Shown in pieces: positions 1 to 1,311 of a stretch of DNA of 1,311 nt; the stretch's first letter is position 1, and each line of letters starts with the position of its first letter. The position numbers and the translations under genes were made by a program. Source of the DNA: Escherichia coli (GTDB lineage Bacteria > Pseudomonadota > Gammaproteobacteria > Enterobacterales > Enterobacteriaceae); the NCBI RefSeq assembly GCF_003334785.1, contig NZ_QOWV01000063.1. One strand, given 5' to 3'. The notes beneath the pieces are model-generated. The model was not told the DNA's origin and did no database searches. It worked only from the letters and a program-made list of their open reading frames with translations.

Positions 1-1
1 C

Positions 2-26
2 TGAACCGCCCCGGAAATCCTGGAGA
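2..26. repeat. Left terminal inverted repeat (IRL) of the IS element
   Basis: TGAACCGCCCCGGAAATCCTGGAGA at 2..26 matches the reverse complement of 1287..1311 (TGAACCGCCCCGGGTTTCCTGGAGA) at 22 of 25 positions; the first 13 nt are identical, with mismatches at IR positions 14-16. Confidence 0.85.
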
Positions 27-27
27 C

Positions 28-33
28 TAAACT
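28..33 (+). promoter_or_regulatory. Candidate weak -10 element (TAAACT) of the native orfA promoter, just inside IRL
   Basis: TAAACT at 28..33 resembles TATAAT (TAnnnT), about 22 nt upstream of the orfA ATG. No convincing -35 lies 16-18 bp upstream (ACCGCC/CCGCCC), so a weak promoter is expected. Inference only. Confidence 0.2.
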
Positions 34-41
34 CCCTGAGA

Positions 42-47
42 AAGAGG
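42..47 (+). promoter_or_regulatory. Shine-Dalgarno sequence for orfA
   Basis: AAGAGG at 42..47, 8 nt upstream of the ATG at 56. Confidence 0.6.
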
Positions 48-55
48 TAAACAGG

Positions 56-382
56 ATGACTAAAAATACTCGTTTTTCCCCCGAAGTCCGTCAGCGGGCG
101 ATTCGTATGGTTCTGGAAAGTCAGGATGAATATGACTCACAGTGGGCGGCAATTTGTTCCATTGCCCCAAAGATTGGCTGTACGCCGGAGACTCTGCGTG
201 TCTGGGTTCGCCAGCATGAGCGGGATACCGGGGGCGGTGATGGTGGGCTCACCAGCGCTGAACGTCAGCGTCTGAAAGAGCTGGAACGTGAAAATCGTGA
301 ACTGCGCCGCAGTAACGATATCCTTCGCCAGGCTTCCGCTTATTTTGCGAAGGCGGAGTTCGACCGCCTCTGGAAAAAATGA
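56..382 (+). CDS. IS3-family transposase OrfA (DNA-binding subunit with helix-turn-helix and leucine-zipper region), 108 aa
   Basis: ORF 56..382 preceded by an SD. The translation has an HTH-like segment ([28 protein letters not shown], about nt 134-205) and a heptad leucine pattern (L76, L83, L90, F97 in [25 protein letters not shown], about nt 251-355), as in IS3/IS911 OrfA proteins. It ends WKK-stop directly on an A6 run. Confidence 0.9.
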
Positions 383-1269
383 TGCCACTGCTGGATAAGC
401 TGCGTGAGCAGTACGGGGTCGGACCGGTATGCAGCGAACTGCATATTGCCCCGTCAACGTATTACCATTGTCAGCAACAGCGACATCATCCGGATAAACG
501 CAGTGCCCGTGCGCAGCACGACGACTGGCTGAAGAGAGAGATACAGCGCGTATACGATGAAAATCATCAGGTGTACGGTGTGCGTAAAGTCTGGCGTCAG
601 TTGTTACGGGAAGGAATCAGGGTGGCCAGATGTACAGTGGCACGTCTCATGGCGGTTATGGGACTTGCCGGTGTTCTCCGGGGTAAAAAGGTCCGTACGA
701 CCATCAGCCGGAAAGCCGTTGCCGCAGGCGACCGCGTAAACCGTCAGTTCGTGGCAGAACGACCTGACCAGCTGTGGGTGGCTGATTTTACTTACGTCAG
801 CACATGGCAGGGCTTCGTCTATGTGGCGTTTATCATTGATGTGTTTGCCGGATACATCGTGGGGTGGCGGGTCTCATCGTCTATGGAAACGACATTCGTG
901 CTGGATGCGCTGGAGCAGGCGTTGTGGGCCCGTCGTCCGTCTGGCACCATCCATCACAGCGATAAAGGCTCTCAGTATGTGTCACTGGCCTATACGGAGC
1001 GACTAAAAGAAGCCGGATTACTGGCATCAACAGGGAGTACAGGCGACTCGTATGACAACGCGATGGCTGAGAGCATCAATGGTCTTTACAAAGCGGAGGT
1101 AATACACCGTAAGAGCTGGAAAAACCGTGCAGAAGTGGAACTGGCCACACTAACGTGGGTGGACTGGTATAACAATCGACGATTGCTGGGAAGGCTGGGC
1201 CATACTCCTCCGGCAGAAGCAGAAAAAGCTTATTATGCTTCCATCGGAAACGATGATCTGGCAGCCTGA
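56..1269 (+). CDS. Predicted OrfAB transframe fusion transposase (about 404 aa) produced by -1 frameshifting near 377-379
   Basis: Inferred from the frame relationship of orfA and orfB, the A6 slippery run at the orfA stop, and the fact that the orfB frame is open for 21 codons upstream of its ATG. Fusion length is computed assuming slippage at the last AAA codon. Confidence 0.6.
374..382 (+). other. Putative programmed -1 ribosomal frameshift site (A6 run followed by the in-frame TGA stop, overlapping the orfB ATG)
   Basis: aaaaaatga at 374..382: zero-frame codons AAA(374-376) AAA(377-379) TGA(380-382). The -1 frame reads AAA(376-378) ATG(379-381) and is open back to a stop at 313-315. Producing OrfAB by -1 slippage on A-rich motifs is established for the IS3 family; the exact slip codon here is inferred. 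Confidence 0.65.
379..1269 (+). CDS. IS3-family transposase OrfB (DDE catalytic / integrase-core domain), 296 aa as an independent ORF; mainly expressed as the C-terminal part of the OrfAB fusion
   Basis: ORF 379..1269 in the -1 frame relative to orfA. Catalytic triad candidates: D136 (GAT 784-786, in WVADFTY), D195 (GAT 961-963, in HHSDKGSQY), E231 (GAG 1069-1071, in [13 protein letters not shown]), with K238 seven residues after E. The D-to-E spacing is 36 residues, matching the DD(35)E signature of IS3-family and retroviral integrase catalytic domains. Confidence 0.9.
429..444 (+). other. Short perfect hairpin (6-bp stem ATGCAG/CTGCAT, 4-nt loop CGAA) downstream of the frameshift region
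   Basis: ATGCAG (429-434), loop CGAA (435-438), CTGCAT (439-444) form a perfect inverted repeat. It lies about 50 nt after the slip site, further than typical frameshift stimulators, so its function is uncertain. Confidence 0.2.
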
Positions 1270-1286
1270 GTTCACAGATAAAACAC

Positions 1287-1311
1287 TCTCCAGGAAACCC
1301 GGGGCGGTTCA
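1287..1311. repeat. Right terminal inverted repeat (IRR) of the IS element
   Basis: Reverse complement of 1287..1311 matches 2..26 at 22/25 positions; the element ends in CA-3', as is typical of the IS3 family. Confidence 0.85.

Follow-up and report, generated by a model that had tools for sequence, protein, structure and literature searches.

The window studied here, by which we mean the whole stretch of 1311 nt, raises two questions: which element it carries, and what that element has inserted into. The first has a plain answer, as positions 2–1311 are one complete 1310-bp insertion sequence (IS) of the IS3 family, IS1203/IS629, on the + strand. The element is fully known, few insertion sequences of enterohaemorrhagic E. 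coli have been studied more thoroughly, and the window adds no new information about it. The second cannot be answered from this DNA: the insertion site of this copy and its duplication are not determinable, because the window stops at the ends of the element and the sequence is multi-copy. A preliminary description had already presented the window as an IS copy without flanks whose duplication and target could not be read, and our analysis agrees, the window consisting of position 1 and the element at 2–1311. The tests that it proposed, a search for direct repeats and a search for split host genes, were run on other copies of the element.

Identity and ends of the element

The element and its ends are laid out as follows.

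Position 1, no strand: single flanking base C, outside the element; the base preceding TGAAC varies among copies, and duplications abut position 2
Positions 2–1311, + strand: complete insertion sequence IS1203/IS629, with 100% identity to annotated copies and ends fixed by duplications in 46 of 69 copies
Positions 2–26, + strand: left inverted repeat (IRL), begins with TG, 22 of 25 positions complementary to 1287–1311
Positions 1287–1311, + strand: right inverted repeat (IRR), ends with CA, 22 of 25 positions complementary to 2–26

The terminal inverted repeats are 25 nt long and imperfect (TGAAC...GTTCA), with TG...CA ends as in the IS3 family. Megablast against 5,426 complete E. coli genomes returned matches to the window in 4253 of them, and all 1311 nt, flanking C included, are 100% identical in at least 30 of the records listed. 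The exact 1311-nt string is found on E. coli chromosomes and plasmids in varied contexts. RefSeq labels identical DNA 'IS3-like element IS1203 family transposase' and marks in it both a programmed frameshift and an AL1L pseudoknot; identity was judged from such RefSeq loci annotated as IS1203 family. IS1203 is treated as an isoform of IS629 (PMC3271280), and the sub-types of IS629 differ by 4–5% (Rump et al. 2011, PMC3271280). O157:H7 and O111 copies that carry the IS1203 annotation have the same sequence as this copy, which therefore probably belongs to the IS1203-like sub-type I.

Flanked copies were taken from ten RefSeq loci, from ten loci encoding the exact OrfB and from 120 viral-contig stretches with the exact left end, and 69 distinct full-length copies that had 25 nt or more of flank on either side were kept. 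Direct repeats adjoin TG and CA without a gap in 46 of these 69 copies, against about one by chance (binomial p ~1e-60); 23 copies have no direct repeat. The repeat measures 3 bp in 42 copies, 4 bp in three and 5 bp in one, which bears out the 3–4 bp duplication anticipated in the preliminary description. Its placing of the ends, which leaves a single base outside the element, at the left, also holds, as the duplications abut these exact ends and the base at position 1 varies. Rump et al. 2011 reported 3–4 bp duplications at 21 of 47 sites, with no clear target consensus and no strict target (PMC3271280). Among the 23 copies without a duplication, one-mismatch 3-mers occur in seven, against about three expected (p = 0.04), which is too weak to interpret.

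Fifty-nine copies were collected without selection for the base at this place; immediately before TG, 23 of them have C, 18 have T, 10 have G and 8 have A. Position 1 is flank because the base there varies and because duplications abut position 2; the C of the window, the base most often seen there, carries almost no information. The frequency of C (23 of 59) is what would favour counting position 1 into an element of 1311 bp with no flank at all. This reading is practically negligible: the base is not constant among copies, the inverted-repeat match begins at position 2 and the duplication abuts the TG there directly in 46 copies. Moreover, one copy (L002, inserted in rclB) has the flanks ...TAC–IS–TAC..., and its empty site is exactly 3 nt shorter. 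Position 1 as an element base was therefore rejected on the duplications, the base variation and the L002 empty site.

The borders of the window fall almost exactly on the element ends, as they also would in a sequence cut out by its annotation or deposited as an IS record. It might be a reference record that stands by itself, or an excised circle that was linearised, the C then being one of the three bases of the junction spacer; circle formation is known from the IS3 family (bioRxiv 10.1101/2023.06.07.543989). We regard this as very improbable, since the same 1311-nt string is present as ordinary insertions in many genomes, and either way the window would be without target information. We keep to an element copy preceded by one host base.

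Compared with IS1203/IS629 as known from E. coli O157:H7, O111 and Shigella (IS3 family, IS3 group), the element shares the DNA sequence, the length of 1310 bp, the TG...CA ends, the 25-nt repeats, orfA and orfB with a −1 frameshift, and the 3–4 bp duplication in flanked copies, as in Rump et al. 2011 (PMC3271280). It differs in nothing detectable.

Coding sequences and frameshift signals

Two reading frames, three catalytic residues and the signals for frameshifting lie within the element.

Positions 56–382, + strand: orfA, 108 aa, helix-turn-helix DNA-binding/regulatory protein (ORF list; positions 1–86 of NCBIfam transpos_IS3; PF01527 HTH_Tnp_1)
Positions 379–1269, + strand: orfB, 296 aa from ATG, in the −1 frame relative to orfA, catalytic DDE domain (ORF list, Pfam, NCBIfam)
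Positions 784–786, + strand: catalytic D (OrfAB D244, OrfB D136), motif WVADFTY, within the rve domain
Positions 961–963, + strand: catalytic D (OrfAB D303, OrfB D195), motif HHSDKGSQY
Positions 1069–1071, + strand: catalytic E (OrfAB E339, OrfB E231), motif located in the sequence
Positions 343–347, + strand: TTTTG, upstream −1 slip site, with 4 intervening nt (348–351) before ALIL SL1
Positions 374–379, + strand: A6 run, second candidate −1 slip site, adjoining the orfA stop TGA at 380–382
Positions 337–453, + strand: ALIL frameshift-stimulating pseudoknot, Rfam RF01497, with SL1 at 352–368, SL2 at 415–453 and the loop–loop pairing of 358–363 with 419–424

orfA and orfB are consecutive and partly overlapping, with orfB in the −1 phase, as the IS3 family requires. 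The orfB frame is open from 316, the preceding in-frame stop being at 313. PF01527 HTH_Tnp_1 is on record for the identical 108-aa OrfA product. OrfB matches the Pfam domains HTH_21, rve (E 3.5e-26) and rve_3, and by itself scores 316 bits on NCBIfam transpos_IS3 (NF033516), where the cut-off is 160. D244 of OrfAB is presumably catalytic, an assignment that we made from family knowledge; the D-59-D-36-E spacing is typical of IS3 transposases.

The ALIL match to RF01497 covers the full length of the model (1–117) with 121.5 bits (gathering score 50) and an E value of 9e-33. All five of five pairs of SL1 can form, as can six of six pairs between the apical loop of SL1 and the internal loop of SL2, and RefSeq annotates the same ALIL feature on identical copies. 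The fusions at both slip sites were built in silico and then matched to deposited proteins. The TTTTG fusion, a 404-aa OrfAB, is exactly the 'MULTISPECIES: IS3-like element IS1203 family transposase' (394 contigs); the A6 fusion, also 404 aa, is a deposited protein too and constitutes the minority model (158 contigs). The A6 run had been considered as the sole slip site, and this was revised, as the ALIL geometry and the database fusions point to TTTTG at 343–347 as the site used by RefSeq. PMC5771124 cites Chen and Hu 2006 under the title 'Two frameshift products ... IS629', and the two products named there may correspond to the TTTTG and A6 sites.

The loop–loop helix departs slightly from the Rfam consensus. 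GCUCGA/UCGAGC has become GUUCGA/UCGGAC, in which a C-G pair is replaced by U-A and a U-A pair by U-G, with six of six pairs kept. These substitutions look like a small compensatory change, consistent with a pseudoknot.

IS911, IS3 and IS150 produce OrfA, OrfB and, by programmed −1 frameshifting, OrfAB; they have a DDE (rve) core and TG...CA ends, move by copy-out/paste-in via a circle and leave 3–4 bp duplications. The window element shares with them the predicted frameshift-made OrfAB, the rve core and the TG...CA ends, and differs in nucleotide sequence and in the stimulator, which is a simple stem-loop or an H-type pseudoknot in those elements and ALIL here (PMC5009743). It is in the latter respect like IS3411 and other ALIL-bearing IS3-family elements (Mazauric et al. 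2008, cited in PMC5009743), given the full-length RF01497 match. As in those elements, the apical loop of SL1 pairs with the internal loop of SL2, here about 55 nt downstream, within their range of 44–104 nt (PMC5009743). Unlike in those elements, the loop–loop helix deviates from the Rfam consensus at two places, with one G-U pair, and the A6 run adds a second candidate slip site on the downstream side of SL1.

Taken as a whole, the window is almost certainly an intact, apparently autonomous copy of IS1203/IS629 (2–1311) with one host base, which would work as described for the element and its family. In the expected cycle, orfA would be translated to its own stop to give OrfA, and a fraction of ribosomes would slip by −1 in the orfA/orfB overlap, at TTTTG (343–347) and possibly at A6 (374–379). 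With the aid of the ALIL pseudoknot, the slip would yield the 404-aa OrfAB DDE transposase, which would bind and act on the TG...CA inverted repeats. The element would then transpose by copy-out/paste-in via a circle, and integration through a 3-bp staggered cut would usually leave a 3-bp duplication and rarely one of 4–5 bp. Copy-out/paste-in and the role of OrfAB as transposase are described in bioRxiv 10.1101/2023.06.07.543989. The anatomy, the identity, the boundaries and the duplications at related copies are read directly, and we infer the use of the frameshift, the circle intermediate and the activity of this particular copy from the literature and the intact sequence, and the activity also from the hundreds of copies to which this one is identical.

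No sigma-70-like promoter passed a simple scan of the window, and inspection by eye of the IRR-NNN-IRL circle junction gave no convincing −35/−10 pair. The negative scan would fit a defective or domesticated remnant that no longer functions as an IS. We nevertheless hold this to be most unlikely: both inverted repeats, the ORFs, the slip sites, the full-length ALIL and the DDE residues are intact, and the identical sequence is present in many copies at different sites, some of them strain-specific. Identical copies at different sites, including strain-specific ones, imply recent transposition, so that an apparently functional IS remains the preferred reading.

Insertion contexts and empty sites

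The surroundings of ten exact 1311-nt matches were examined, and no two of them are alike.

L001: inside an ISEc8 (IS66 family) of the O157:H7 strain PV15-279, copy at 2002–3311, no duplication
L002: in rclB of the O111-type strains E2863 and E2855, TAC duplication
L003: flanked on one side by a surface exclusion gene and on the other by truncated traN, no duplication
L004: in traG, TTC duplication, both flanks fragments of the same product
L005: flanked by a truncated transfer gene with the annotation TraC and by a gene of the ProQ/FinO family, no duplication
L006: in a prophage exonuclease gene, AAC duplication, both flanks fragments of the same product
L007: beside an autotransporter fragment
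L008: in a plasmid 5'-3' exonuclease gene, TTC duplication, both flanks fragments of the same product
L009: in an antirepressor gene, no duplication
L010: upstream of a plasmid dnaE

Look-up thus cannot assign a genomic position to a window trimmed to the ends of a multi-copy IS. Where the test for split host genes was applied to these copies, a single gene is split in L004, L006 and L008, all three with a duplication. The caveat raised earlier, that a copy may sit among other IS copies without a duplication, is exemplified by L001 inside its ISEc8.

About 1 kb beyond the L001 copy lies a 786-aa gene (4363–5311) annotated 'TOTE conflict system archaeo-eukaryotic primase domain-containing protein'. 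Judged by size, domain and neighbourhood, it may be iee, the IS-excision enhancer acting on IS629.

L002 allows a direct comparison with the empty site. Its joined flanks form a contiguous 597-nt sequence in 5,041 genomes, and 597 equals 600 minus one copy of the 3-bp duplication. At the empty site (L141, 586–822), rclB is 237 nt long and the point of insertion is 15 nt short of its 3' end; with the IS present (L002, 3309–3536), rclB is 228 nt long and RclB is shortened from 78 to 75 aa. The terminal TCA of the IS supplies a new TGA stop for rclB on the other strand, and RclB loses three residues because this stop is the reverse complement of the last three bases of the IS. The insertion also puts 1.3 kb between rclB and rclC.

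Copies without a duplication give a different picture. The flanks of L009 are contiguous in 0 of 5,426 genomes. In L005, the TraC-annotated fragment measures 132 nt and adjoins traK. Read against the known gene order of the F plasmid, L003 and L005 join genes that are not adjacent, and kilobases of transfer genes are therefore missing. In the duplication-less copies that were examined, the IS thus has on its two sides sequences that are not neighbours, the outcome that IS-mediated deletion or recombination would give. Absence of the duplication, seen in about one third of copies, signals later rearrangement. Since a missing duplication is common for IS629/IS1203, flanks have to be both searched for a 3-bp repeat and compared with the empty site.

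Target sequences among related copies

An ACTGATG motif in the right flank, seen in three of the first ten copies (L006, L007 and L010), is absent from 59 further copies and was dismissed as a target motif. Among 38 unselected copies with a 3-bp duplication (from L011–L140), C stands two bases before the duplication in 19 (p = 5e-4) and G two bases after it in 18 (p = 2e-3), both p values being uncorrected across about 108 tests and the phylogenetic independence of the sites not shown. CA before and TG after the duplication occur at eight of the 38 sites each, so that the target bias is weak and symmetric.

Three unrelated copies without a duplication, L009 (1490–1501 and 2812–2823), L019 and L049, share the flank pair ...AAC on the left and ATC... 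on the right. AAC is over-represented as the left flank, with four of 59 copies (p = 0.014) and five of the ten copies selected for C; this excess could reflect a preference for sequence resembling the IS tip (TGAAC), or chance.

A speculative view, which we think rather doubtful, would be that IS629/IS1203 has a weak palindromic target preference, 5'-C(A)-NNN-(T)G-3', mirroring its own TG...CA tips, and that the duplication-less copies between AAC and ATC stem from insertion beside IS-tip-like sequence rather than from later deletion. If true, such a preference would concern the element population and not this window.

The 4.79-Mb genome CP019256.1 carries at least eight copies (L013–L020) that share the same 2-base difference from the window, and seven of these eight have clean 3–4 bp duplications. 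The pattern suggests that transposition surged in this strain not long ago.
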